Shown here one piece after another: positions 3,226 to 32,810 of a stretch of DNA of 64,000 nt (within the stretch, counting starts at the first letter, position 1; every line of letters begins with the position of its first letter). The position numbers and the translations under genes are program-made. The DNA lies in IMG/VR virus record IMGVR_UViG_2529292906_000009, positions 3,303 to 67,302 of that record; one strand, given 5' to 3'. The notes below the pieces were generated by a model. It did not search any database and was not told where the DNA came from. It saw only the letters and a program-made list of their open reading frames with translations. Source of the stretch: a virus (lineage: Duplodnaviria > Heunggongvirae > Uroviricota > Caudoviricetes).

Positions 3226-3446
3226 TATCGGTTAACCAGTTCCTTGTTGGTGGAGTCCAGGGTGTCAAACAGGGATGCAAATTCAGCATCCAGCGCCGCT
3301 TTTTTGTAGGCTTCGAAAGTAGCCTTGCTGACAATTACTGCTGGCTCACGGCCTCTGCGGGTGATTTCAACCTCTTCCCCGGCTTCAACATTGTTGAGCA
3401 CTTCAGAAAGGTTGCCACGCGCGGTACGGAAGTTAATGGATTGCAT
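3225..3446 (-). CDS. phd: Phd antitoxin
   Basis: 73-aa product [32 protein letters not shown]... recalled as P1 Phd; immediately upstream of doc. Confidence 0.95.
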
Positions 3447-4082: not shown

Positions 4083-4667
4083 ATGCCTAATCGCATTCCT
4101 CTCGCTCCTGTATTGCCCAAAAATTTTGACTGCACTCCTAACGAGAAACGCTCTAAAGCTCAGCTGGACGCCTGGTGGGACCATCCATATGGGGTTACAC
4201 AACCTGACGGGAAAATTGTAGTTTATTGTCTGAATGGTGGGGCGTGGGACCGTCCATCCGTGCTTTGTTTGGCAGATAACTATGATGAAGCCTGTGAACT
4301 TGCCGAAAGACAGCAGGCAAGCTGGGTAAAAACACGGTCTGAACCGACATTCATGTTTTCAAAAGAACCGCCATTTATACTGGCGAGGATGCCGCAGCGA
4401 CCGGATCATCAACAAGAAATTGTTGCTGAATTTTCCTCTAGGGATGAGATGAATCTCTTCTCATTAAAGCAGGAAGAAAGGGATCGCGTCGAAGTGTCTC
4501 CAACTCTCGACCACAACCGGATGAACCTGGCCCAACTCGCCTGGTACAGCAAAGAATTAGAGATGTCTATTGCCCGACTTGAAAACGAAAAAGCCGCTAT
4601 CCAAGCCCAGCATGAAGTAGTTCTGAACCGGATTAGAGAAATGCAAAACGATAACAGGGGATTTTGA
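4083..4667 (+). CDS. Hypothetical protein, 194 aa, divergent from humD and probably LexA-regulated (lxr-like position)
   Basis: ORF in track; shares the LexA-box intergenic region with humD. Confidence 0.55.
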   Translation: MPNRIPLAPVLPKNFDCTPNEKRSKAQLDAWWDHPYGVTQPDGKIVVYCLNGGAWDRPSVLCLADNYDEACELAERQQASWVKTRSEPTFMFSKEPPFILARMPQRPDHQQEIVAEFSSRDEMNLFSLKQEERDRVEVSPTLDHNRMNLAQLAWYSKELEMSIARLENEKAAIQAQHEVVLNRIREMQNDNRGF

Positions 4668-5024
4668 ATGGCTAAAATCGAGTACCATCGCGATCGCGGT
4701 AATTACCTGGAAATATACGATCATGAATCTCTTAACGATATCAACGATGCGTTATATGAATACTGTGAAAAAACGAGCATCACAGATGCACCTGATGCAT
4801 TTGTCGAGCTACCGGTATATCTCCGCGACATCTATGCAATACGAACACCGCCCGTATCGGTGATCCACATTGGCTATGTCCGCCTGTCCATCGAAGAAGA
4901 TGAAGATCGTTATATCGTGCGCCACTATACATTGGACAGAAAAGAACTTCCTAATGAATGGAACATGAGTAATTTCTACAACGGTGAATATGGCTTAAAA
5001 TCCACTAATAATTTACGGTCATAA
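4668..5024 (+). CDS. Hypothetical protein, 118 aa
   Basis: ORF in track; start overlaps the stop of the preceding ORF (translational coupling). Confidence 0.5.
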   Translation: MAKIEYHRDRGNYLEIYDHESLNDINDALYEYCEKTSITDAPDAFVELPVYLRDIYAIRTPPVSVIHIGYVRLSIEEDEDRYIVRHYTLDRKELPNEWNMSNFYNGEYGLKSTNNLRS

Positions 5025-5886
5025 TCTATACAGGCATGTATAACAACAACGAGCCTATTAGCTGTCAACAACGTTATTTTCTCAAATAAGAAAAAGCAGA
5101 AAACAAATTGTTTAAGGTCACAAATTGTGGCCTTGATGGAGGAGGGAGGCTTATTGGCTATGGCTAAAAATCAAATTAGACACTTCATGTTGCTGTAGCT
5201 CATCAAGATCCGAGGCCACAAAACCTTTTCCGAAAAACTTCACAAGTAACTCACTAGCCGCATCATTGTCACCTATTACACGAAAGTCATACGGCAACGT
5301 CGCAAGTTGACGATGTAATCCTGCTGAGAAAGTCGAATCTAACAGCGACCAGAATTCCCACCGCAGGATAATACTCGCCTCTTAATACTGTATATATGTT
5401 GTTACGATATGTTTTTCTGTCTCTAAAAAAAGATGTTAATAGAATGCTAACCATTGAAGGGGATAAAAATATACAATTCCAACAAACGTTATTTTTAACA
5501 ATTTTTTTCTTTGCGTTGACTTTCCCGGACACCTTGTCTGACCGAAGGTGCGCGAAAGCCACTTTTTCCTTCCTGAGTTATCCACAAAGTTATGCACTTG
5601 CAAGAGGGCCATTTTCTACATATTGTGGTGGCTAACAGATGAAATGAATGTAGATTAATTGAAGATAAGGAGAAAATTTGAGATGCAATCATGACGTTAA
5701 TAGATAGGGTCTGCATTACAGACCCCATCCGCATCAAGGAATTAGCCGTTCCCTGATGTTGTTCCGAAAACATGTGCCGTAAGCTCACGTTAACGACTTT
5801 CTTTCACCGAATCCAACTATATAGGGGTTGGGTTTCTACGTCAACGTGAGCAAGTGCTCCTTTACATTTGACAAGGAACCACCTTA

Positions 5887-6024
5887 ATGACTGCTTTTTT
5901 TCAGTTCCTGAGTGCATTTTTAGATGCGCCTGTTATTAGCCAGATTCTGGCGATCATCCTCATCATCGTTTTGATTTTGCTTTTAAGGTCAGTAAAAAAT
6001 GGAATTATGCACTGGCTTACTTAA
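5887..6024 (+). CDS. Candidate 45-aa hydrophobic peptide (MTAFFQFLSAFLDAPVISQILAIILIIVLILLLRSVKNGIMHWLT)
   Basis: Not in ORF track (below size cut-off); ATG at 5887 with AAGGA 9 nt upstream; single predicted transmembrane helix. Confidence 0.35.
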   Translation: MTAFFQFLSAFLDAPVISQILAIILIIVLILLLRSVKNGIMHWLT

Positions 6025-6098
6025 TGTTCAGTGAAACATTAAAATCTCCTTGATGTGGAAACAATCATTTTCTGTATGTGCTGGTGGGTACCTGTAGT

Positions 6099-6455
6099 TC
6101 AGCTTTCGTTGGCATTTAACTTCGTCTTTGCTTTCTCCACCAGCAACTTCCAGATGCCTATTTCATTAGCAGCCGCCTTGATGGCGGCATAAAAAGCATC
6201 TTGCTGATCGTAACGCTGAATCTGTTTTTTCAGTTTTGCCTCCACCAATTTAATTTCATTACGTGCTTTCTGAAGCCGAAGCGCCGCCCGGTTACGTCTG
6301 TTCTTGTATAGCGCGTTAATCTCTGACAATTGCTTTAATTTACCAGCCTGACTGCGGATTATCGCCTCTCTGACTTCTGCCGTGCGTCTCATCTGATCTC
6401 TTAAGAGTTCACCGTTTTCGATAATTCTTTCAAGGTGTTTGATGTGATCTGCAAC
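6099..6455 (-). CDS. Coiled-coil hypothetical protein whose first four codons are separated from the body by IS2 (native start ATG at 7798-7796)
   Basis: Native reading ATG AGA GTT GC / [IS2] / continues at 6450; track ORF 6099-6482 borrows a start inside IS2. Confidence 0.5.
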   Translation of the reverse strand, partial: VADHIKHLERIIENGELLRDQMRRTAEVREAIIRSQAGKLKQLSEINALYKNRRNRAALRLQKARNEIKLVEAKLKKQIQRYDQQDAFYAAIKAAANEIGIWKLLVEKAKTKLNANES

Positions 6456-6466
6456 TGGATTTGCCC

Positions 6467-7372
6467 CTATATTTCCAGACATCTGTTATCACTTAACCCA
6501 TTACAAGCCCGCTGCCGCAGATATTCCCGTGGCGAGCGATAACCCAGCGCACTATGCGGATGCCATTCGTTATAATGCTCGAACGCCTCTGCAAGGTTCT
6601 TTGCTGCCGTTAACCCGTCTGGTTTGGGCATGATACTGATGTAGTCACGCTTTATCGTTTTCACGAAGCTCTCTGCTATTCCGTTACTCTCCGGACTCCG
6701 CACCGCCGTGTTCTTCGGTTCAAGTCCCAACATCCGGGCGAACTGGCGTGTTTCATTAGCCCGGTAGCATGAACCATTATCCGTCAGCCACTCCACTGGA
6801 GACGACGGAAGATCGTTGCCGAAGCGGCGTTCCACCGCTCCCAGCATGACGTCCTGTACTGTTTCACTGTTGAAGCCGCCGGTAGTCACCGCCCAGTGCA
6901 GTGCCTCACGATCACAGCAGTCCAGCGCGAACGTGACACGCAGTCTCTCTCCGTTATCACAGCAGAACTCGAACCCGTCAGAGCACCATCGCTGATTGCT
7001 TTCTTTCACGGCCACTCTGCCTGTATGTGCCCGTTTCGATGGCGGTACAGCAGGTTTTCGCTCAAGCAACAGCGCATTCTGGCGCATGATCCGGTAAACA
7101 CGTTTGGCATTGATCGCAGGCATACCATCAAGTTCTGCCTGTCTGCGAAGCAGCGCCCATACCCGACGATAACCATACGTGGGCAGCTCTCCGATAACAT
7201 GGTGTATACGGAGAAGCACATCCGTATCATCAGTGTGACGACTGCGGCGGCTATCCATCCAGTCATCGGTTCGTCTGAGAATGACGTGCAACTGCGCACG
7301 CGACACCCGGAGACAACGGCTGACTAAGCTTACTCCCCATCCCCGGGCAATAAGGGCGCGTGCGCTATCCAC
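6467..7372 (-). CDS. insD: IS2 transposase InsD (OrfB, DDE)
   Basis: 301-aa ORF recalled as IS2 InsD; overlaps insC in the -1 frame. Confidence 0.9.
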
Positions 7373-7695
7373 TTTTTTGCCCGTCCATATTCAACGGCTT
7401 CTTTGAGGAGTTCATTTTCCATCGTTTTCTTGCCGAGCAGGCGCTGGAGTTCTTTAATCTGCTTCATGGCGGCAACAAGTTCAGAGGCAGGAACAACCTG
7501 TTCTCCGGCGGCGACAGCGGTAAGACTTCCTTCCTGGTATTGCTTACGCCAGAGAAATAACTGGCTGGCTGCTACACCATGTTGCCGGGCAACGAGAGAG
7601 ACCGTCATCCCCGGTTCAAAGCTCTGCTGAACAATTGCGATCTTTTCCTGTGTGGTACGCCGTCTGCGTTTCTCCGGCCCTAAGACATCAATCAT
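7330..7695 (-). CDS. insC: IS2 InsC (OrfA, HTH)
   Basis: [26 protein letters not shown]... recalled as IS2 InsC, 121 aa. Confidence 0.9.
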
Positions 7696-7793
7696 CTGTT
7701 CTCCAATGACTAGTCTAAAAACTAGTATTAAGACTATCACTTATTTAAGTGATACTGGTTGTCTGGAGATTCAGGGGGCCAGTCTAGCAACTC

Positions 7794-8471
7794 TCATACT
7801 TCACCCTCGCTTGTATCGCCAGCATCCACCAGCGGCAATAAAGCCCTGGCCATCTTATGAACCAATAGTGCATCAATAATGCCAAGCGTATGCCCCGGCT
7901 TAATGTTTAATGCCGCCTCAAGGTGACACCTTTCCAAGCCACTTTTCTCGGCTTGTTTATGATGATCTGGCGTAATAACGTCGCCCAAAACACGGCTAAT
8001 TCTTTCTCGTAATTGCTGGGTGCCCGCACACTTGATCGCTGTATCGTGGAGACGGTTAACCAGTTCGCGATAAACATGCGGTTTAATGCGGATACGTTCA
8101 CCGGTGACGCCCTTTCCTGGCCCTGGCACCGAACTATCCGGAATATCCGGATAGTTGCCAGCCTCGTAAGCTACCCGCAGCCAGTGCATGAATGTTTCCG
8201 CAGACACACAACCGCAGTCCACATCGATTTCCCCGCGTTGCTGCTCCAGCCATTGCTCAAAATCTAACTTGTAAGCATCACTTCCAAGTTGCTCTTTTTG
8301 TCTCAATGTCAGCACCTGTTGGGCTAGTTCCAGAACGATACCGGGTGACGCTAACCTCTCAAATTCCAATAAATAGTTTGCGTCTGGATGACAAGTAGCT
8401 TCCCCTGCAAAAAATACCAGTTGCTGTAAGTATGCTGTCGTTATTGCGGTCATAACTTTATCTCCTTGCAT
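7794..8471 (-). CDS. Hypothetical protein, 225 aa
   Basis: ORF in track; stop overlaps native start of the IS2-interrupted gene. Confidence 0.55.
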   Translation of the reverse strand: MQGDKVMTAITTAYLQQLVFFAGEATCHPDANYLLEFERLASPGIVLELAQQVLTLRQKEQLGSDAYKLDFEQWLEQQRGEIDVDCGCVSAETFMHWLRVAYEAGNYPDIPDSSVPGPGKGVTGERIRIKPHVYRELVNRLHDTAIKCAGTQQLRERISRVLGDVITPDHHKQAEKSGLERCHLEAALNIKPGHTLGIIDALLVHKMARALLPLVDAGDTSEGEV

Positions 8472-8680
8472 GGTTCGCCTTTACGGCAAACAGCTACACG
8501 GTCATTTCTTACATTAACCACAGTCACCGTTCCGTCATCGCATTGAATAACGATGAAAGGGTGTTCATTCTCTTTTGTGCAATGTTGCTGTTCCCCTGCT
8601 GTAACAGTGAGGGGAATTAATAAAATAATAATTACTGCGAATTTACTAAATGTTGTCATAGCAATCTTTCTGTTTTTCAT
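8450..8680 (-). CDS. Small secreted Cys-containing protein, 76 aa (N-terminal signal peptide)
   Basis: MKNRKIAMTTFSKFAVIIILLIPLTVTAGE signal-like N-terminus. Confidence 0.5.
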   Translation of the reverse strand: MKNRKIAMTTFSKFAVIIILLIPLTVTAGEQQHCTKENEHPFIVIQCDDGTVTVVNVRNDRVAVCRKGEPCKEIKL

Positions 8681-8973
8681 TATGGTTGAATCCAGTTATC
8701 TTCAATAGCAATGCTCAATCTTTGTAACCATTCTGCTAATTTCAGCATTGCTTCTCTTTCGCTTAAACCACACGGAAAATCATCAAGCGATATTGTTGGC
8801 TTGAAGTTTCCCAAATTATCCATTTCAACGGTCAGATTTTGCTCCAGCACGGTATTCCTTACGCGGCTATTGTGCCGAAGCAAATATACTGAACGTGATT
8901 TATTGGTTTTGTGGTCGAACGTATATTCGGTAAGTATCATCTGGCTTCCGCCATGATTATTACCGCGCCACAT
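8680..8973 (-). CDS. Hypothetical protein, 97 aa
   Basis: ORF in track within a tightly packed minus-strand operon. Confidence 0.45.
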   Translation of the reverse strand: MWRGNNHGGSQMILTEYTFDHKTNKSRSVYLLRHNSRVRNTVLEQNLTVEMDNLGNFKPTISLDDFPCGLSEREAMLKLAEWLQRLSIAIEDNWIQP

Positions 8974-9890: not shown

Positions 9891-10096
9891 TTGTTAATCC
9901 TCAAAACTTTATGCCCGGGCGCAAAAGCACGTGTTTTGTCTTTACTTATTCGCCACCCGTCTTTACGGGCCTCTTTTGCACAACCAGACCATGACGTACC
10001 GATATACTCACCGAAGTCTGGCACTGGATATACACCTTCCGTACACTGGCGGCAGTCACAATAGAGATGCATGGTGTAACTTGCAGCGATAGCCAT
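9887..10096 (-). CDS. Small Cys-rich protein (start set at internal Met)
   Basis: Track ORF 9887-10177 overlaps upstream gene; internal ATG at 10096 removes the overlap. Confidence 0.35.
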   Translation of the reverse strand: MAIAASYTMHLYCDCRQCTEGVYPVPDFGEYIGTSWSGCAKEARKDGWRISKDKTRAFAPGHKVLRINK

Positions 10097-10097
10097 A

Positions 10098-10688
10098 TCA
10101 CTCTCCTTTGATGCGAATGCCAGGGGCGCGTGGCACATTAACTTCCACGATGCGCACAGTTGGTTTGTACATCTCAATCGCAGTCAGCCAGTCAGCGCCA
10201 GTCATGCGCTTTTCTGCATCGCCATTAGTCCACTTAACCGGTACACCAATAGCCTTCATCGCGATTTCTATTTCCCCGGCAATGGCGCTTTTTCCGCAAC
10301 CAGTAAAACCAGATACAACGACCAGAACTTCACCTTTGGCTGGTTTTATTTCCCGCGCTTCCAGTTCTGCTATGCGCTTACTTCCATCCGAGATAACACC
10401 TTCGTAATACTCACGCTGCTCGTTGAGTTTTGATTTTGCTTCCTCAAGCTCAACTCTCAGCTTCCCTACCGTTAGCGCAATATCCTCGTTCTCCTGGTCG
10501 CGGGATTTGATGTATTGCTGGTTCCTTTCCCGTTCATCCAGTAGTGCCAGCACGGTTTCTGGCGAAAAGTGCTTCATAAAATCGTTAAGCGCATTAATTC
10601 GCTGATCGAAAGGCATTACAGGTGCTTCACCAGCAATTTTTGTTTTTTCAGCGATTTCACGAAGCTTTTGATAATCAATCTTGCTCAC
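10098..10688 (-). CDS. Ea22-like coiled-coil protein, 196 aa
   Basis: N-terminus MSKIDYQKLREIAEK and coiled-coil core resemble lambdoid Ea22/ead family. Confidence 0.55.
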   Translation of the reverse strand: MSKIDYQKLREIAEKTKIAGEAPVMPFDQRINALNDFMKHFSPETVLALLDERERNQQYIKSRDQENEDIALTVGKLRVELEEAKSKLNEQREYYEGVISDGSKRIAELEAREIKPAKGEVLVVVSGFTGCGKSAIAGEIEIAMKAIGVPVKWTNGDAEKRMTGADWLTAIEMYKPTVRIVEVNVPRAPGIRIKGE

Positions 10689-11419
10689 TGGTTGCCTCCT
10701 TTGCGAAGCTGGGCAGCAAAGTCAACTAACCACTCAGTCATTTCAACCTTCCCTACCAGGTCTGAACCAGGGTGCATACAGCAATCACTCTGCGCCGCTT
10801 TGAAATCCTTATACTCATATTCTTGGGCCACCAGATTTTTTGCAGCTTCTATAGCAGCATCCACGCCCTGCGCCCGCACTTCAGCCAGGAAAGCATCGGT
10901 GGCTGGCATATTTCCTGTTGCCTTCATGGCCTCCAAAATAACCAGAACGCCATCTCGCCCAACCACCTCAGCGATAACCTCGGTGTTGTCGCCAACAACA
11001 TCGCAGAATGCCTGAACTGCCTTACGAGCCAGCTCATTCTCCACTGCCAGCGCCGTGCGATTACCCTCCAGCTCTGCAATGCGCTGTTTTGCGGCATCCA
11101 GTTCAATCGACAATTTTTCCAACTGCTCTTGATGCTTCTTGTATTCCTGATATGCGTGCCAAGACTGACCTTTGCGCACACTATCAGTGATATCAGTAAT
11201 CTGTTCTGGTGTTAGCGTGATCAGTGGCTGTGATGGGAAAATAAGCACTTTCCCGGAATCCCAATCAAAACCAGCGTGAATTGACTGAACCTCAACTGAA
11301 GGTGTTGAACCAATGCTGCCAGGCGAATGAACAACGATTGTTACATCCATATCGCGACGATGGCTGTGGTTGTTGGACAAAATACGATTCACCAACTCAG
11401 AAAATTTGGAAAATTTCAT
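10685..11419 (-). CDS. Hypothetical coiled-coil protein, 244 aa
   Basis: ORF in track; coiled-coil segment similar to neighbours. Confidence 0.55.
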   Translation of the reverse strand: MKFSKFSELVNRILSNNHSHRRDMDVTIVVHSPGSIGSTPSVEVQSIHAGFDWDSGKVLIFPSQPLITLTPEQITDITDSVRKGQSWHAYQEYKKHQEQLEKLSIELDAAKQRIAELEGNRTALAVENELARKAVQAFCDVVGDNTEVIAEVVGRDGVLVILEAMKATGNMPATDAFLAEVRAQGVDAAIEAAKNLVAQEYEYKDFKAAQSDCCMHPGSDLVGKVEMTEWLVDFAAQLRKGGNQ

Positions 11420-13645: not shown

Positions 13646-14251
13646 CTACTGAATACGCTCAAACTCGATTACCCAAACCCAGGGATTAGCACTCCAGCTT
13701 TCTTCGCCGTAGATGGATTCCCACAGGCGCTGGAACGCAACCTTGGCCATTGCGAAATCCCCCTTGGGAGTAAGGAATGTTCCCGGGTGATCAGGAAGCA
13801 AACTTCCAGCAGGCGGAACGCCCTCATCCCTTGCATCGCATTCGCTGATATCGTTCAACCGCTCAACGCGCACGTTGGTAATTTCCAGAAGAATGCGCGA
13901 TGCCCAGCGCGGCATGTGAATTGATGGCGTCCACTTTTCTGATACTGGTTTATTACAAACCTCGACCGGAACCCGGTGCGTTTGTTCTGTCCAGGAGTTA
14001 CGCACGCTTGCGCGATAAACCAGCGTTGCGACGTCCGTCGCTTTGCCATGTACCCGGTAGGTTTCGCGAACCCAAATACGATCGCCCGGTTGACCATATG
14101 GACAATGCTTGGCAAGCAACTCTGCGGCCACTGCCCGTCCATAGAATTTTTCTTCAACAATCCTGCGAGTCTGTGTTTTATTCCCGCCAAGAATTGCCCG
14201 GACCATCTCATCGTTAAAAATCATGCCGCGCTCTTTCACTTCGCCTTTCAT
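13646..14251 (-). CDS. ASCH-domain protein, 201 aa
   Basis: ILGGNKTQTRRIV matches ASCH GxKxxExR motif; strong RBS AAGGGGGA before ATG at 14251. Confidence 0.6.
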   Translation of the reverse strand: MKGEVKERGMIFNDEMVRAILGGNKTQTRRIVEEKFYGRAVAAELLAKHCPYGQPGDRIWVRETYRVHGKATDVATLVYRASVRNSWTEQTHRVPVEVCNKPVSEKWTPSIHMPRWASRILLEITNVRVERLNDISECDARDEGVPPAGSLLPDHPGTFLTPKGDFAMAKVAFQRLWESIYGEESWSANPWVWVIEFERIQ

Positions 14252-14347: not shown

Positions 14348-14429
14348 ATTTTCAGCTCCTGTGATTGATTGGATACATGCCGCGCCTTGCGGCATGTTTT
14401 TATTTTCACTTTCTCTGTTTTAAAAATCA

Positions 14430-14952: not shown

Positions 14953-15024
14953 ATGCCCTCCTCATTGGACGAAAAAAATGCTGGTGGGAGCACTCCACCA
15001 GCATTAAAAGTGACACTGTAACTA

Positions 15025-16521: not shown

Positions 16522-16587
16522 ATTGCTCTAATAAAAAACGTGATGAGTGTACATCACGTTTTAAAAATATGGAATTATTAGAGCAAT
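16522..16587. promoter_or_regulatory. Pair of C1-operator-like 17-mers in inverted orientation (16522-16538 + and 16571-16587 -) flanking a 20-bp hairpin
   Basis: attgctctaataaaaaa and ggaattattagagcaat, each 14/17; cgtgatgagtgtacatcacg palindrome between. Confidence 0.45.
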
Positions 16588-16588
16588 A

Positions 16589-17290
16589 TTATTCTGATTC
16601 TCGCTCAAAAAATGAGCTGATAAGGGGAAGCCAATCCTCTGACACTTCGCGAGGTCGCGGTTTGCCGTGGAAAAAGATTATTCGGCAGTCTTTTGGTAAT
16701 GCCCCATTCCCCCTGGAGTAACGCGCGCTCGCATATTTTGAACCAGGTTCCACAACATCGGCCTTGTAACTTACAAACCATCCTGGATACAGATCCTGAA
16801 ATGCTGGTGTATCATCGCCCATAACCTTTCGTAAGAACCCCTGGTCACCCCAACACTCAGTAGTGACACAACGAGAAATCCAACCTTCCGGATCTTGCCA
16901 GAATGAACTCCAGATATGCGCTTTAACACTATTTGGTATCCACAGGGCACCGCTGCCACGATATTGTGGATGGTAAAAATCCCTAAGCATGGTGAAGCTG
17001 GTTGGTGGATGCTCTAGGATTGGGCGTATATCACCGGCAATAACCGTGTCCAAATCCAGATAGAACAGATCATCGGTTATATCCGGTCGGAACAACTCGA
17101 TTTTCGCCCACCAGCCACGGCACTTTTGCCACTGGTTGATCAATGGGATAACTTTGACGCCAGGTACATGTAAACACTTCAGGTCTGTCAGGCAAATAAT
17201 TTCATAGTCTTTTGGCAGTTGATTAACCAGCCACTGCACATCGGAAGCGTTATAGTCACCACCAGAGCGAAGAACTAAAGCAATCTTCAT
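16589..17290 (-). CDS. Putative glycosyltransferase-like protein with DxD motif, 233 aa
   Basis: YLDLDTV (DxD-like) in a predicted alpha/beta N-terminal half; family not confirmed. Confidence 0.4.
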
Positions 17291-17979
17291 GCTGCACCAT
17301 CACCTTTCACTTTCATCAATGTCAGGTTTCCGCAAAATACGGCACCAGTGTCGATATACTGCTGATTCCAGAATGTCTTCGGGCTTTTCACCGGAGTGTG
17401 ACCAAAGATAAAACGATCTGCGCCCGAAATTTCGCCACCAATATCATCCATCGAATCACTGATACGCTCGCGCGCCCAGACAACGTTGAAAAGCGGTACC
17501 TCCTTACCGAATTGGTATTCATTATCCGGATAGTCGGCATGGGCTATAACGATAGTTTCTTGCCCGGTGTTCAACTCAATGATATAGGGCAGACGCTTTA
17601 CCAGCTCCACCAGCGCCCAGGCTAATATTTCCTGATCAGTGTCCAGCATGAAGAACCATTGTCCGCCATTCATTAGCCAGTTATTCACGTTGCCATCTGG
17701 ACTTAACGCATCAATCATCAGCCGCTCATGGTTCCCCATCACTGCCCTGAACCAGGGCATCTGCAATAGTTCCAGACATTCGACATTTTCAGTACCGCGA
17801 TCGATAAGGTCGCCGACCGATATCAGTAAATCCTGCGCCGGGTCAAAATCCACACGATGGAGTTCGGACATCAGTCTGGTGTAGCAACCATGCAGATCAC
17901 CAACAACCCAGACATTCCTGTATTTGGTACCGTCGATACGGTGATAAATTGTGGGTGCCATCATGTATTCTTCAGCCAT
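17287..17979 (-). CDS. ppp: Ser/Thr protein phosphatase, lambda-PPase family
   Basis: GDLHG, GDLIDRG and GNHE metallophosphatase motifs; P1 carries ppp in this region. Confidence 0.85.
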
Positions 17980-18587
17980 TCTTTAAGAGTCATCTGCGGA
18001 ATACCTCCCATTTTCCCGCATGAAACAACGTCAATCCGTTCACGCGCAGACTGGAATAACAAAGGCAGGTGACTTAGATTTTTTGGCGTGCCGCCGGAGT
18101 GAACGCGTGGTTCTTGTGTAGCGTCAACGCCCACCAGGGCGACATGTTTGAATCCGATATGGAAAGCCAGGTTCAGAGCACCATATGCACTATTGCCGCT
18201 GGCAATTTCATTCTCATCTTCGCAAAGTCCGAAATGTGCGGACCAGCGCCACGCCCACCACTCGGGAGAATTCGTATTTTTTGGCTCCATGCCACGTTCA
18301 GCCACACGACGGAAGCACAGAACGCCGTCTCTGACTTCACGTTCTTTAACATCGGGTAGTGCCATGCAATAACAAACACCACGGCGACGGCGGCCACGAC
18401 CAACGCGCCGCATATTGTCTGGCGATGGATCAAGTGTGAAAAAATAAGAAGCGCGGTTCAGCCAGTCGATGGCCCCATTGACCGCTATAATCGGCACTCC
18501 GCGCGGCGCAACAAAGTTTGCGGCGCTTGGGCCACTGCCGACGATAATAACGCGATCACTGCCTCTAAATTTATTCTTGGGAAACAT
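17961..18587 (-). CDS. Sialyltransferase-fold (GT42 / DUF115 Maf-like) protein, paralogue B, 208 aa
   Basis: [10 protein letters not shown]...IIAVNGA...[24 protein letters not shown] mirrors the Cst-II/Maf motif order. Confidence 0.5.
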
Positions 18588-19147
18588 TGAATTGCACTGC
18601 TCCTACTTGCATTCAAAATATGTAAATCTGCGTGTTTTTTGCGGGTATCCAGGAACTGCTGTTGCCATTTTGAAATAGACACCTGCGTTGGATTCCGTAG
18701 GGCTTGAGGGTGCGCGCCATGCCAATGAAGGCCGTTTTGCAGAGAACAGTCATAGCCGACTAATACAACTACTTCAGCCCCTGATTCAGCAGCCAGACTG
18801 ATAGCCTGCGCGCCGCTATTTACCCCTTCCGCCGGTCCACAATATCGCCTGTACTCCAACGAAAATGATTTCGCCGCCGCCAGGTTGGCTGTCACTTTGC
18901 GGAATTTCCCTCCCGGTATGGTGGATCCGTATTGCTTCCACCATGACAAATCACCGGCGTATAAGGCATAAATGTCATCGAACATCTGCCAGGAATTGTT
19001 AACCGCGATGATTGAACAGCCAGTTTTTTCTATAGCAGCACAGTCCTCACGAGTGAGTGACGGACCGCTACCGACACAAAAAACAGTCCTAGTCGCCCTG
19101 GGTGGTATGTTCATTCTCAGCTGCAAATTCAGCCTCCAGGCGAGCAT
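18485..19147 (-). CDS. Sialyltransferase-fold (GT42 / DUF115 Maf-like) protein, paralogue A, 220 aa
   Basis: VFCVGSGPSL...IIAVNNS...NSGAQAISLAAESGAEVVVLVGYD; C-terminus overlaps paralogue B by about 100 nt. Confidence 0.5.
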   Translation of the reverse strand: MLAWRLNLQLRMNIPPRATRTVFCVGSGPSLTREDCAAIEKTGCSIIAVNNSWQMFDDIYALYAGDLSWWKQYGSTIPGGKFRKVTANLAAAKSFSLEYRRYCGPAEGVNSGAQAISLAAESGAEVVVLVGYDCSLQNGLHWHGAHPQALRNPTQVSISKWQQQFLDTRKKHADLHILNASRSSAIQCFPRINLEAVIALLSSAVAQAPQTLLRRAECRL

Positions 19148-19311
19148 TCATTTCAGCGATTACCGGGTCCACTACAGCATCTGCTTCCTGTTCATTACGC
19201 GGCATGATCGATGCCAGCGATTCATAATTAGCCTTGGATGACACGATTATTCTCCCGATGTTAATGTGCGCTGTATCAAAGATACACATATGCACTAATT
19301 AATTTATTATT

Positions 19312-30555: not shown

Positions 30556-32810
30556 ATACCTAAAACGTCATGAGCTACACCTCGAGTGTCCCCCTTACAA
30601 GACACAGAACGTCTGGCAAAAAGAGGTTCCACTCTGAAGCCACTGTCATGATAAAGCTCTCTGATATTTGGCGCGCCACTGTTAGTAATGAGAACCTTTG
30701 CACCTCGACGATGAGCATCCGTCAACAGAGACACCAGGCGTTTTTGCTCTTCAAACTTAAAGTCATGACCGGAATAGTTCGTGAATCCCTCTGTATTTGG
30801 AAGCGGTTCATACGGCGGATCGCAAAAGATGACATCTCCTTCTCCGGCAGCTTCAATCACCGCTGCAAAATCACCGCATACAAACTCAGACCGCCCTTCC
30901 GCACCGAGGAAGGCTTCCATCTCCTGTAATGGGAAATACGGAGTTTTATACTTCCCATAACCGACATTGAACTCACCGGCCTGGTTGTAACGCGTCAATC
31001 CGTTAAAACAATGTCGGTTCAGGAACAAAAACGCCGCTGCGCGATGTAAATCATCATAGACTTGTTTGTTAAACGCATTCCGTACTGCCAGGTATCCTTC
31101 CTGTGTGTTGTAGTCCTGGAAGAAACGATGTGCCAGAGTGATAAGTGAATGCGCCTCGCGTTGCAGAGTCTTGTAAAAGTTAATCAGGTCAGCATTCACA
31201 TCATTTAGCAGATTTTCCTGGTATCCGGCATTCATGAAGACAGCTCCGCCACCAACGAAAGGTTCAATCAGGCGCTTCCCTTCTGGCAAATAGCGAAAGA
31301 TTTGTTCCAGAACACCAAATTTTCCACCAGCCCATTTGAATATGGACCGTTCGAATTCTGCCGCTGGTTTAACTTTTCGCTCTTTTGTTTTACTTCCTTC
31401 TTTCTGCCGACATACGGCCTTAGTAATCCGATCGCCAATCCAGCGCATTACTGGTATTGCCATACTATTGCCGATCGCTTTGTAACGCGGTCCGTCAGCT
31501 GCAAGCATCGCGGCCTCTTCTTCGCTTAAATCTGGATAGTGATTGCGAAGATATGCCAGTTCATCTGAATTAACTTTTTTACGCTTTTCCGTCGGGATCA
31601 ACGTATGCCCATCAGGAAAACCTTGCAGCCTTTCACATTCGACAGGGGTAAGACGGCGGACAGCTACTTCTGCGTTTCTTACTTCATAGCAAACAGCTGT
31701 TGGATTTTTAGCCATTAGAGATGGTGAAGTATTCTTAGTTGCAGCATGTTGTGTACCGCTCATACGCTCAGGAAAAGCCAATGTAACAAGATGCTCATGG
31801 CTTTCTTGCTCACGTGCCCGCAATGTACCATGCCCTTCTGACCAAAAACCTGCTCCTGTGCTGCTAAAAACGGCAAGGTCAGTGGCATCTTTAAAATCTC
31901 TTGCCTTTACTGTCGATGCGGTTTCATCGTCAATATATTCCCCAAATGCTGCCATCCTGAAAGCGTTTACGGCTTTCGTCGATTTCATACCGGGTGGAAT
32001 GTCAGCGTGTAGGCATGGATTTAGGCTTTCGCCACTGATTGCAGCGCCATTTGCAATAATGGCGGAAGCGATTTCCTTCTTTTTTCGGCTCGGCGCAATA
32101 TCCCGGCGCACGCCTTCGAACTCAAAAAGTACCGTTGCGGGATCGAGGTCTGTTCGAGCACTTGCGACAACAAACACGCGTCGGCGTCGTTGTGCCACTC
32201 CGAAGTATTGGGCATCAAGGATTCTCCAGGCCACCTTTCGCTGCGGTCCATAAATACAACCACACTGCGGCCACTTTGGAGCATGGCAACCGGTTTTGCC
32301 ATCCCACCGCCAGAACGCGTTACTTTTTCCTGATTCAGGTCGATCACCTGGTTCAAATGGCGCATCTTCTCCAGCCAATCCGGCAAGGAAACATCCGAAG
32401 GCGTTATCTGCCGATGACAGGACTCCTGGGACATTTTCCCAGACGATAACTGTCGGTTTGAGGAAGGACTCAGACCGTTTGTCGTCAATTGCATTTGCAA
32501 GCTCCACATACTTCAAAGTTAGCGCGCCGCGTTCATCATCAAGCCCACCACGTAAGCCCGCGATACTGAATGCCTGACAAGGTGTTCCCCCGACGAGCAC
32601 ATCAGGGGATTCGATTTCCCCAGCCAGGACTTTTTTGGCAAGTTTTGTCATGTCGCCAAGGTTGGCGACATGGGGCCAGCGGTGCGCAAGAACGGCAGAT
32701 GGAAAAGGCTCGATTTCAGCAAACCACGCCGGACGCATACCCAACGGTTCCCAGGCAATACTCGCGGCTTCAATTCCACTGCAAACAGATCCATAGCACA
32801 GCTCTTTCAC
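30546..32810 (-). CDS. dmt: Bifunctional DNA methyltransferase Dmt: N-terminal C5-cytosine MTase, C-terminal Dam-like N6-adenine MTase
   Basis: 754 aa; GGTPCQAFS and ENV motifs in N-half, DPPY motif in C-half; P1 Dmt has this size and architecture. Confidence 0.9.

Follow-up and report, generated by a model that had tools for sequence, protein, structure and literature searches.

The pmgO, pmgP and pmgQ genes of phage P1 as a widespread phage module with a possible role in glycosylation

What do the pmgO, pmgP and pmgQ genes of phage P1 do? We addressed this question with a 64,000-nucleotide stretch of viral DNA (the window; positions 3,303 to 67,302 of IMG/VR record IMGVR_UViG_2529292906_000009), which derives from a P1-type phage-plasmid with 99% identity to P1. 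The three genes lie at 16589-19147 of the window, where DNA identity to P1, SJ46, RCS47 and their relatives is 99.0 to 99.5%. P1 is a workhorse phage, and about a fifth of its genes, these three included, are without a function. An earlier, sequence-based reading of the locus (the original prediction) could name no described phage function for it, and we likewise found no experimental function for pmgO, pmgP or pmgQ in the literature; the genes are conserved in P1, but "pmg" stands for "putative morphogenetic function", a placeholder of genome annotation and no described function, which leaves the original prediction unrefuted. RefSeq and PHROGs already list PmgO publicly as an "alpha-2,3-sialyltransferase" and PmgQ as a "glycosyltransferase". 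In a CRISPR interference (CRISPRi) map of P1, pmgO, pmgP, ppp and pmgQ were non-essential, and single-gene deletions cited there gave the same result (PMC10695390); a deletion study recorded 24 of 29 knockouts without a plaquing or antirestriction defect (PMC9024508). Beyond the annotation, we describe here an O-P-Q module that does not include ppp, the obligate partnership of O and P, the repeated embedding of the module among head genes and the serine-rich tails of the accompanying capsid proteins, from which we derive the testable hypothesis that the module glycosylates virion proteins.

As listed among the open reading frames (ORFs) of the window and in the P1 annotation, pmgO occupies 18485-19147 on the minus strand and encodes a 220-residue protein with a predicted Maf/GT42/MptE-type fold; pmgP (17961-18587, minus strand; 208 residues) follows directly. 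The original prediction that these neighbors are paralogues was borne out. BLASTP connected PmgO and PmgP over their first 36 N-terminal residues only (E = 0.003), and a profile-profile comparison with hhalign aligned 163 columns with a probability of 98.2% (E = 3.9e-14). The family alignments for this comparison were made without an O-P fusion protein, which inflates the score. Judged by these profiles, PmgO and PmgP are distant paralogues, and the main difference between them is an insertion of ∼35 residues in PmgP (EP..SPEWWxWRW). The motifs quoted previously for the two ORFs are present and proved to be the conserved core of each family, in which the order GxGPS, VN, D, NSG, G(Y/V)D and His is invariant or nearly so. 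In the PmgO family, G28, P29, S30, N50, D66, S111, G112, G131, Y132, D133, H141 and H143 are invariant, and in the PmgP family S18, G19, P20 and S21 (at least 90%), V36, N37, G38, D53, N132, S133, G153, D155 and H173 are conserved.

The two reading frames overlap by 103 nucleotides (18485-18587, minus strand), pmgP being read in frame -1 with respect to pmgO. The overlap is the same in the P1 reference annotation; it had been thought unusual, which did not hold, since homologous O/P pairs overlap by 4 to 148 nucleotides, and 19 of 21 show the same -1 placement of pmgP. It is thus a conserved trait of the family and neither an oddity of P1 nor an assembly artefact. For PmgP, the overlapping DNA encodes the conserved GSGPS block that forms the nucleotide loop, and for PmgO it encodes a nonconserved C-terminal tail with low values of the predicted local distance difference test (pLDDT). 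Together with natural O-P fusions and relatives with tandem domains, the overlap suggests that PmgO and PmgP are cotranslated and work together. The P1 overlap also contains two heptamers of the X XXY YYZ type, T TTC CCA at 18584 and A AAT TTA at 18572. We considered and rejected a programmed -1 frameshift that would yield an O-P fusion, as the heptamer is missing in most other lineages; the TTTCCC is explained by the conserved Cys-Phe-Pro that it encodes, and the shared -1 frame by descent.

AlphaFold models of both proteins, which comprise the core alone, were confident (pLDDT of 85.5 for PmgO and 91.7 for PmgP). In structure comparisons, the two models scored 14.0 and 13.1 against the flagellin glycosyltransferase Maf (5mu5), 11.7 and 13.1 against the archaeal hydroxymethylpterin pyrophosphokinase MptE (8sd5) and 11.0 and 10.8 against Campylobacter Cst-I (2p56); thiamin pyrophosphokinases scored 8 to 10 with either model, and animal GT29 sialyltransferases 7 to 9 and 7 to 10. 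With Foldseek, the best match for PmgO was Maf (E = 3e-5). The structural alignments spanned 148 to 165 residues for Maf and Cst-I versus 129 to 136 for MptE. Both the modified GT-A/Rossmann-like fold of Cst-I/II and the fold shared by the Maf central domain and MptE are present in the models, which thus give PmgO and PmgP the Maf/GT42/WaaZ (MptE-like) nucleotide-binding fold. Because the same fold also houses pyrophosphokinases that use adenosine triphosphate (ATP), it does not by itself establish sugar transfer.

The likeness to GT42 and Maf proteins that had been recognized earlier therefore stands at the level of the modeled fold; as a matter of sequence, membership is marginal and no match to GT42 was significant. 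Searches of Pfam at E values up to 0.1 returned the MptE-like family (PF01973, DUF115; gathering threshold 34.6 bits) as the only match and no CST-I family match for PmgO or PmgP. Some homologues do pass the threshold, among them the O-P fusion P0051 at 44.6 bits and many others with a precomputed PF01973 assignment, and on these scores the PmgO and PmgP families appear to sit at the edge of PF01973. A PmgO family profile matched Cst-II sequences weakly (E of 0.14 to 0.67) and was aligned exactly at the first and fourth motifs, GxGPSL and (T/N)SG...G(I/Y)D; the PmgP profile gave no match to Cst-II sequences in the PDB, and PDB sequence searches with the single PmgO and PmgP proteins and with the O-P fusion returned nothing useful. 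Following the G(Y/V)D block, both families have invariant histidines (H141 and H143 in PmgO, H173 in PmgP), which would lie roughly where the catalytic histidine of GT42 enzymes stands. Escherichia coli WaaZ, the Kdo-III transferase of lipopolysaccharide (LPS) synthesis (Kdo, 3-deoxy-D-manno-oct-2-ulosonic acid), matches the MptE-like family at 7e-7 and has the same motif pattern. The fusion P0051 carries faint precomputed matches to both MptE-like and WaaZ_KDO_III (PF27901).

The third gene, pmgQ (16589-17290, minus strand; 233 residues), had been described as a glycosyltransferase-like ORF with a DxD motif, and this was upheld by matches to GT8 enzymes. PmgQ belongs to phrog_1962, "glycosyltransferase" (1e-127). 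On its own, P1 PmgQ has no Pfam match, Glyco_transf_8 included, and that family was matched by only 5 of 43 PmgQ relatives, weakly (best E = 0.026). A profile built from the 43 relatives and searched against the PDB found the Skp1 alpha-galactosyltransferase (6mw5; 4.7e-8), glycogenin-1 (7e-6) and a streptococcal GT8 enzyme (5gvv; 6e-5). The matches to 6mw5 and glycogenin (E of 4.7e-8 to 1e-5) span their DxD, GDQG and HxGxxKPW blocks; in PmgQ, D79-L80-D81 and D149 are invariant, and H208, G209, P211 and P213 nearly so. By these profile matches PmgQ is a GT8-like DxD transferase, and presumably a metal-dependent hexosyltransferase.

We then asked how far the three genes travel together, using a species-level set of 18 genomes, in which 15 loci had enough flanking sequence, and 25 diverse loci from IMG/VR found with a divergent sequence as seed, of which 23 could be judged. 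P and Q occurred together at every such locus (15/15 and 23/23), and O was present in most. The order O-P-Q recurs in phages of Citrobacter rodentium, Pseudomonas, Zhongshania and Brevundimonas as well as in others. In a C. rodentium prophage, the series O, P, Q follows the lysis cassette, and a Pseudomonas HK97-like prophage has the capsid gene followed by O, P and Q and an extra GT-A-like protein. The same extra protein stands beside Q in a podovirus-like contig, where O and P are fused into one protein of 376 residues. In an Ochrobactrum prophage, P and Q stand between the connector gene, which follows the capsid gene, and the gene for the head-completion protein, and the genes abut or overlap at their boundaries. 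The hosts that could be named are all diderm: Gamma-, Beta- and Alphaproteobacteria, one member of the Bacteroidota and one of the Gemmatimonadota. Taken together, these loci establish O-P-Q as a widespread, conserved module of unrelated phages, in which PmgO and PmgP are obligate partners; neither this nor the existence of natural O-P fusions (P0051, for example, at 10001-11131 of locus L004) had been described before.

The phosphatase gene ppp (17287-17979, minus strand; 230 residues), which interrupts the series between pmgP and pmgQ in P1, is not part of this module, contrary to what its position had suggested. It encodes a lambda NinI-type Ser/Thr phosphatase (Metallophos, 9e-16; NF008516, 3e-81), is absent from every non-P1 locus and does not lie between P and Q in the P1-like phage-plasmids L113, L120, L122, L123 and L131, where O-P-Q is contiguous. 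As both the non-P1 loci and these five diverged P1-like elements lack it there, ppp is a late, lineage-specific insertion in the sublineage of P1.

The company kept by the module also bears on its function. At an E-value limit of 1e-30 the PmgO family counts 493 cluster representatives, and at a limit of 1e-3 it counts 7,685. PmgO-like proteins include forms with tandem O-like domains and fusions to a TylF-type O-methyltransferase, to Ig-like Big_1 domains or to a domain of ∼300 residues homologous to orf12 of Pseudomonas phage D3, which others have annotated as a GT9 heptosyltransferase (fusion and tandem proteins P0302, P0321, P0380, P0346, P0393, P0296, P0401 and P0310). Frequent neighbors of the module are extra GT-A proteins and S-adenosylmethionine-dependent (SAM) or FkbM methyltransferases. 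This company of transferases and methyltransferases argues for the building of a glycan and against a pyrophosphokinase role. No sugar-activation genes were found among the module neighbors examined.

The module is found between the genes for the major capsid protein or connector and those for head completion in five or more independent lineages of HK97-like phages. It is placed in the structural operon in L007, L008, L099, L100, a JGI contig and phage D3, and when the 58 proteins that flank it at 11 non-P1 loci were sorted by Pfam family, most were portal, terminase, connector, capsid, protease and head-completion proteins, along with methyltransferases. D3 and its relatives have a variant of the module (4459-8701 in the IMG/VR locus L205, corresponding to orf6 to orf13 of D3, NC_002484 4459-9143), in which the PmgO homologue orf7 stands one small ORF past the capsid gene orf6, and the head-tail joining region also holds orf12 (275 residues, phrog_6804) and the methyltransferase orf13. 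The 275-residue partner has no Pfam or PDB sequence match; it may be GT9-like, as suggested by the annotation of others and by its motifs. We also observed an arrangement of another kind in Pseudescherichia and an Enterobacteriaceae metagenome-assembled genome (L093 to L097) and in Serratia plymuthica (L003), where homologues of O, P and Q are scattered on both strands around proteins of 999 to 1178 residues and Big_1 Ig-like proteins, beside an integrase fragment. This points to an island and not a phage operon, and the Ig-like proteins could be the acceptors there.

Carriers and non-carriers of the module differ at the C terminus of the capsid protein. Among 80 relatives of D3/L008-type capsids, compared by whether their genomes carry the module, a G-S-(L/F) motif near the C terminus was found in 31 of 32 carriers (for example GSLTAS, as in D3 itself, or GSLSES) versus 1 of 38 non-carriers, the remaining non-carriers having GPL, GAL, GDL or GEL; the carriers form at least two clades with non-carriers in between. 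Among capsids of the L007 (Ochrobactrum) type, only the carrier has an SGATGS extension, and seven of its eight closest non-carrier relatives (57 to 81% identical) have alanine-rich tails (AAA, AE), the other, L343, ending in ...SLSATTV. For the L099 (Zhongshania) type, the closest carriers (77 to 94% identical) end in GNLSGAS or similar. The pattern, new here, is suggestive: in three capsid lineages, presence of the module tracks serine-rich capsid C termini.

In P1, the genes have a different setting, namely an operon under C1 control with tail/baseplate genes on one side and pmgR/pmgS on the other. Its first ORF, the small pmgN (19089-19244, minus strand), overlaps the annotated start of pmgO by 59 nucleotides in the P1 annotation. 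The P1 record places a predicted promoter, PpmgN, and the C1 operator Op83 (Oppp) upstream of pmgN; in the window, Op83 lies at 19289-19305 on the plus strand (TATGCACTAATTAATTT) with 13 of 17 consensus matches. To this extent, and on the authority of the P1 record, the assignment to an early operon is sustained. The flanking genes named earlier fared unevenly: the phosphatase was clear, and the VRR-NUC nuclease pmgM, which precedes pmgN, was recovered although its match is weak (3e-4), but the HAD phosphatase pap (HAD_PNKP, 4e-11) is separated from pmgQ by pmgR, pmgS and Op86a/b in the P1 annotation and belongs to a separate C1-controlled unit. Op86b and Op86a, just downstream of pmgQ within 16522-16587 (matches at 16522-16538, plus strand, and 16571-16587, minus strand), mark the start of the pmgR-pmgS unit in the P1 annotation, and pap lies past that unit. 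A scan of the whole window with the consensus ATTGCTCTAATAAATTT and up to three mismatches gave ten C1 operator matches versus 0.35 expected by chance; Op83, with four mismatches, falls outside this limit. One perfect C1 site at 30539-30555 is overlapped by a site on the opposite strand at 30528-30544.

Several further features of this region were seen in passing. By CRISPRi, pmgN was essential (plating efficiency 1.4e-2), and by deletion non-essential, whereas the operon genes downstream of it were non-essential by CRISPRi and deletion alike (PMC10695390). Two strong terminator-like hairpins (11 and 10 pairs), both with a T-run behind them, occur at 14977-15005 (minus strand) and 14375-14397 (plus strand), one closely downstream of pmgS and, on the opposite strand, one closely downstream of pap. 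At the position of pmgT, the window has an ORF (13646-14251) of 201 residues (phrog_874) versus 309 codons for P1 pmgT, and therefore departs from P1 there; the pmgT region is among the highly variable regions of P1-like phage-plasmids in a comparative study (PMC9603915). The product name "norphogenetic protein" attached to the genes at 17961-19890 is a typing error for "morphogenetic"; the spelling occurs in the P1 pmgM note and, via NCBI/RefSeq, on homologues in many genera and on P1 pmgP.

What, then, might the module do? We propose, with a probability of about 0.4, that O-P-Q is a glycosylation module that draws on nucleotide sugars of the host and has a virion protein as its most likely acceptor; for P1 itself, we would set the figure for a virion-protein acceptor somewhat lower. 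The known transferases of the Maf/GT42/WaaZ fold use ulosonic acids activated with cytidine monophosphate (CMP), namely sialic, pseudaminic and legionaminic acids and Kdo. PmgO and PmgP, each a catalytic core of ∼200 residues, would form a heterodimeric transferase for such a CMP-activated ulosonic acid, and PmgQ would add a hexose from a uridine diphosphate (UDP)-sugar. Both donors would be supplied by the host, a UDP-hexose for PmgQ and CMP-Kdo for PmgO/PmgP, the latter being favored because the neighbors examined held no activation genes and the hosts are all diderm. Maf enzymes expressed in E. coli provide a precedent for CMP-Kdo as a donor (bioRxiv 10.1101/2020.06.03.131540). A short glycan would thus be built in the cytoplasm during lytic growth, with the major capsid protein's C-terminal tail as its most likely acceptor in the HK97-like relatives. 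In P1, the module lies in a C1-repressed operon next to head and tail genes and has acquired the unrelated ppp. The more specific claim that many phages of Gram-negative bacteria, P1 and D3 among them, decorate their capsids or other virion proteins with Kdo-containing glycans, built from the LPS-precursor pool of the host by a dedicated set of Maf/WaaZ-like and GT8-like enzymes, is one that we regard as possible and hold with considerable doubt. Neither Kdo or nonulosonic acid on a phage capsid nor a glycosylated D3 capsid came up in our literature search.

Several observations weigh against a virion glycosylation module. The transferase activity, the donors, the heterodimer and the acceptor are all inferred for both families, and the ATP pyrophosphokinases of the same fold score nearly as well as Maf in the structure comparisons. 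PmgO and PmgP remain below the PF01973 threshold, at 23.6 and 21.0 bits, and hhalign comparison of the family profiles with the single E. coli WaaZ sequence was weak (11 to 14% probability, at the G-x-D block). The P1 operon has an early-type, C1-controlled promoter and lies outside the capsid operon, and the P1 capsid protein gp23 ends in ...FISGDTIDAGDSE, which has no clear acceptor motif. Behind the correlation with capsid tails stand about three independent contrasts, which relatedness confounds; L099-type carriers at a greater distance have other tails (such as SGSF and GNLTL). Placement also varies: some genomes have the genes behind the lysis cassette, some next to ribonucleotide reductase, and others spread over chromosomal islands. 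Plating of P1 deletion mutants is normal, and their antirestriction activity is intact (PMC9024508, PMC10695390). Glycan-related terms were absent from the two P1 cryo-electron microscopy papers examined, which is a weak point since flexible glycans are usually invisible.

The main alternative is remodeling of the LPS core or another glycan of the host surface, which we consider unlikely. PmgO/PmgP would then act like WaaZ and place Kdo-type residues on the inner core, with PmgQ resembling the GT8 enzymes WaaO/WaaJ, and the altered or truncated core would mask the receptor, which for P1 we take to be the LPS core, so that progeny would be spared loss on debris or infected cells. WaaZ falls in the same MptE-like superfamily, one fusion homologue has the faint WaaZ_KDO_III match, and D3-type phages and fusions have a GT9 (heptosyltransferase)-like partner; GT8 in CAZy includes glucosyl- and galactosyltransferases of the LPS core, the hosts seen are all LPS-bearing, and the early P1 promoter would leave time to act. 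Normal plating of the mutants is compatible with it. Tight embedding of the module between capsid and connector genes in many phages, on the other hand, suggests a late role linked to assembly, with little time to replace surface LPS, and surface remodeling leaves the covariation of capsid tails unexplained; the closest solved relatives, Maf on one side and Skp1 galactosyltransferase and glycogenin on the other, modify proteins. Repression of the P1 operon in the lysogen makes classical lysogenic conversion unlikely; superinfection exclusion, which the original prediction suggested, fits poorly as an act of a lysogen, for the same reason and because in other phages the genes abut, or overlap with, same-strand genes of late structural proteins. 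That the closest relatives are protein glycosyltransferases would equally suit a nonstructural protein of host or phage as the target, for instance to disable a defence or reprogram a host factor, and here the early-type promoter, the protein phosphatase in the same operon, normal plating on laboratory K-12 and the accessory-like position of some copies, past lysis cassettes or in islands, would all agree. We nevertheless think such a target quite improbable: the antirestriction activity of deletion mutants is unchanged, the head-operon context and capsid-tail covariation favor a structural acceptor, and no defence genes were seen beside the module, although no search with a defence library was made.

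It is slightly less probable again that PmgO and PmgP are ATP-dependent pyrophosphokinases of the MptE or thiamin pyrophosphokinase type, or nucleotide-binding regulators, with a small-molecule substrate. Their sole Pfam match, to the MptE-like family, speaks for this reading, but they are constantly linked to a GT8-like transferase and accompanied by extra GT-A proteins and sugar-type methyltransferases; genes of pterin or thiamin pathways are not nearby, the structural alignments to Maf and Cst-I are longer than that to MptE, and the invariant histidine would fall near the place of the GT42 catalytic histidine. Glycosylation of phage DNA, finally, we hold to be very improbable. There is precedent in phage enzymes of the GT-A/GT8-like type that can glycosylate 5-hydroxymethylcytosine in DNA (bioRxiv 10.1101/2023.12.21.572611), and in one Bacteroidota phage the module lies beside ribonucleotide reductase genes. 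Its contexts are mostly head genes, however, and no gene for a 5-methylcytosine dioxygenase was found near the module at any locus examined. We also know of no hydroxymethylated base in P1 DNA that could take a sugar. The window does contain a 754-residue ORF at 30546-32810 (minus strand) whose N-terminal half resembles C5-cytosine methyltransferases and whose C-terminal half is Dam-like; it is presumably P1 dmt.

Should virion glycosylation by O-P-Q be correct, it would be the first such system outside actinobacteriophages and would use a different enzyme chemistry. Glycan shielding, which blunts antibody recognition, has so far been shown for mycobacteriophages only and could then be widespread in phages of Enterobacteria and Pseudomonas, with a bearing on the immunogenicity of therapeutic phages, on particle stability and on receptor interactions; it would also give CMP-Kdo a new role beyond the synthesis of LPS and capsule. 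Were LPS remodeling the answer instead, P1 would provide a case of receptor masking during the lytic cycle in a phage with an LPS-core receptor. The published collection of P1 single-gene deletions makes the hypothesis testable.

Each of the three proteins can be set beside a known family from which it departs. Maf (5mu5), in which the PF01973 domain is central, is a protein of ∼600 residues whose core is flanked by N- and C-terminal domains, with E324, D415 and one serine as critical residues, whereas PmgO and PmgP consist of the core only, ∼200 residues long, occur as a pair and share 16 to 19% identity with it. Cst-I and Cst-II of Campylobacter jejuni (GT42) are alike in fold, but sequence comparison (E of 0.14 to 0.7) supports no significant membership. 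To our knowledge, CMP-sialic acid is not made by E. coli K-12, and the donor must therefore be different from that of GT42. WaaZ (GT73 in CAZy), which acts in synthesis of the LPS inner core of E. coli and Salmonella, resembles PmgO and PmgP in its motifs, SGP(S/T), IIAVNG, (T/L)D and G(L/V)D, and its donor is the one CMP-sugar expected in all hosts of the module; it differs from the paired phage cores as a single chromosomal enzyme of 283 residues, encoded in the waa operon, with lipid A-core as acceptor. PmgQ has the same blocks as the GT8 enzymes glycogenin, Skp1 alpha-galactosyltransferase and WaaO/WaaJ and is shorter.

As a system, the module is best compared with the glycosylation of mycobacteriophages, whose glycans were reportedly found on subunit C termini by Freeman et al. 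in 2023. Mycobacteriophages glycosylate capsid and tail-tube subunits with transferases of their own, and in Corndog the stretch from portal to protease gene contains an O-methyltransferase gene and three genes of the glycosyltransferase type (PMC12363180, PMC4351075). The enzymes of Che8, Corndog and Myrna are products of the structural operon that do not themselves form part of the virion. Unlike these systems, O-P-Q occurs in diderm hosts, would use a CMP-ulosonic acid and a UDP-hexose as donors, and in P1 sits in a C1-controlled operon and not in that of the capsid; no homology between the two sets of enzymes was seen, though no dedicated comparison was made. What O-P-Q shares with the mycobacteriophage systems is its place in the structural operon of many phages, where the C-terminal tails of the capsid proteins vary with its presence.

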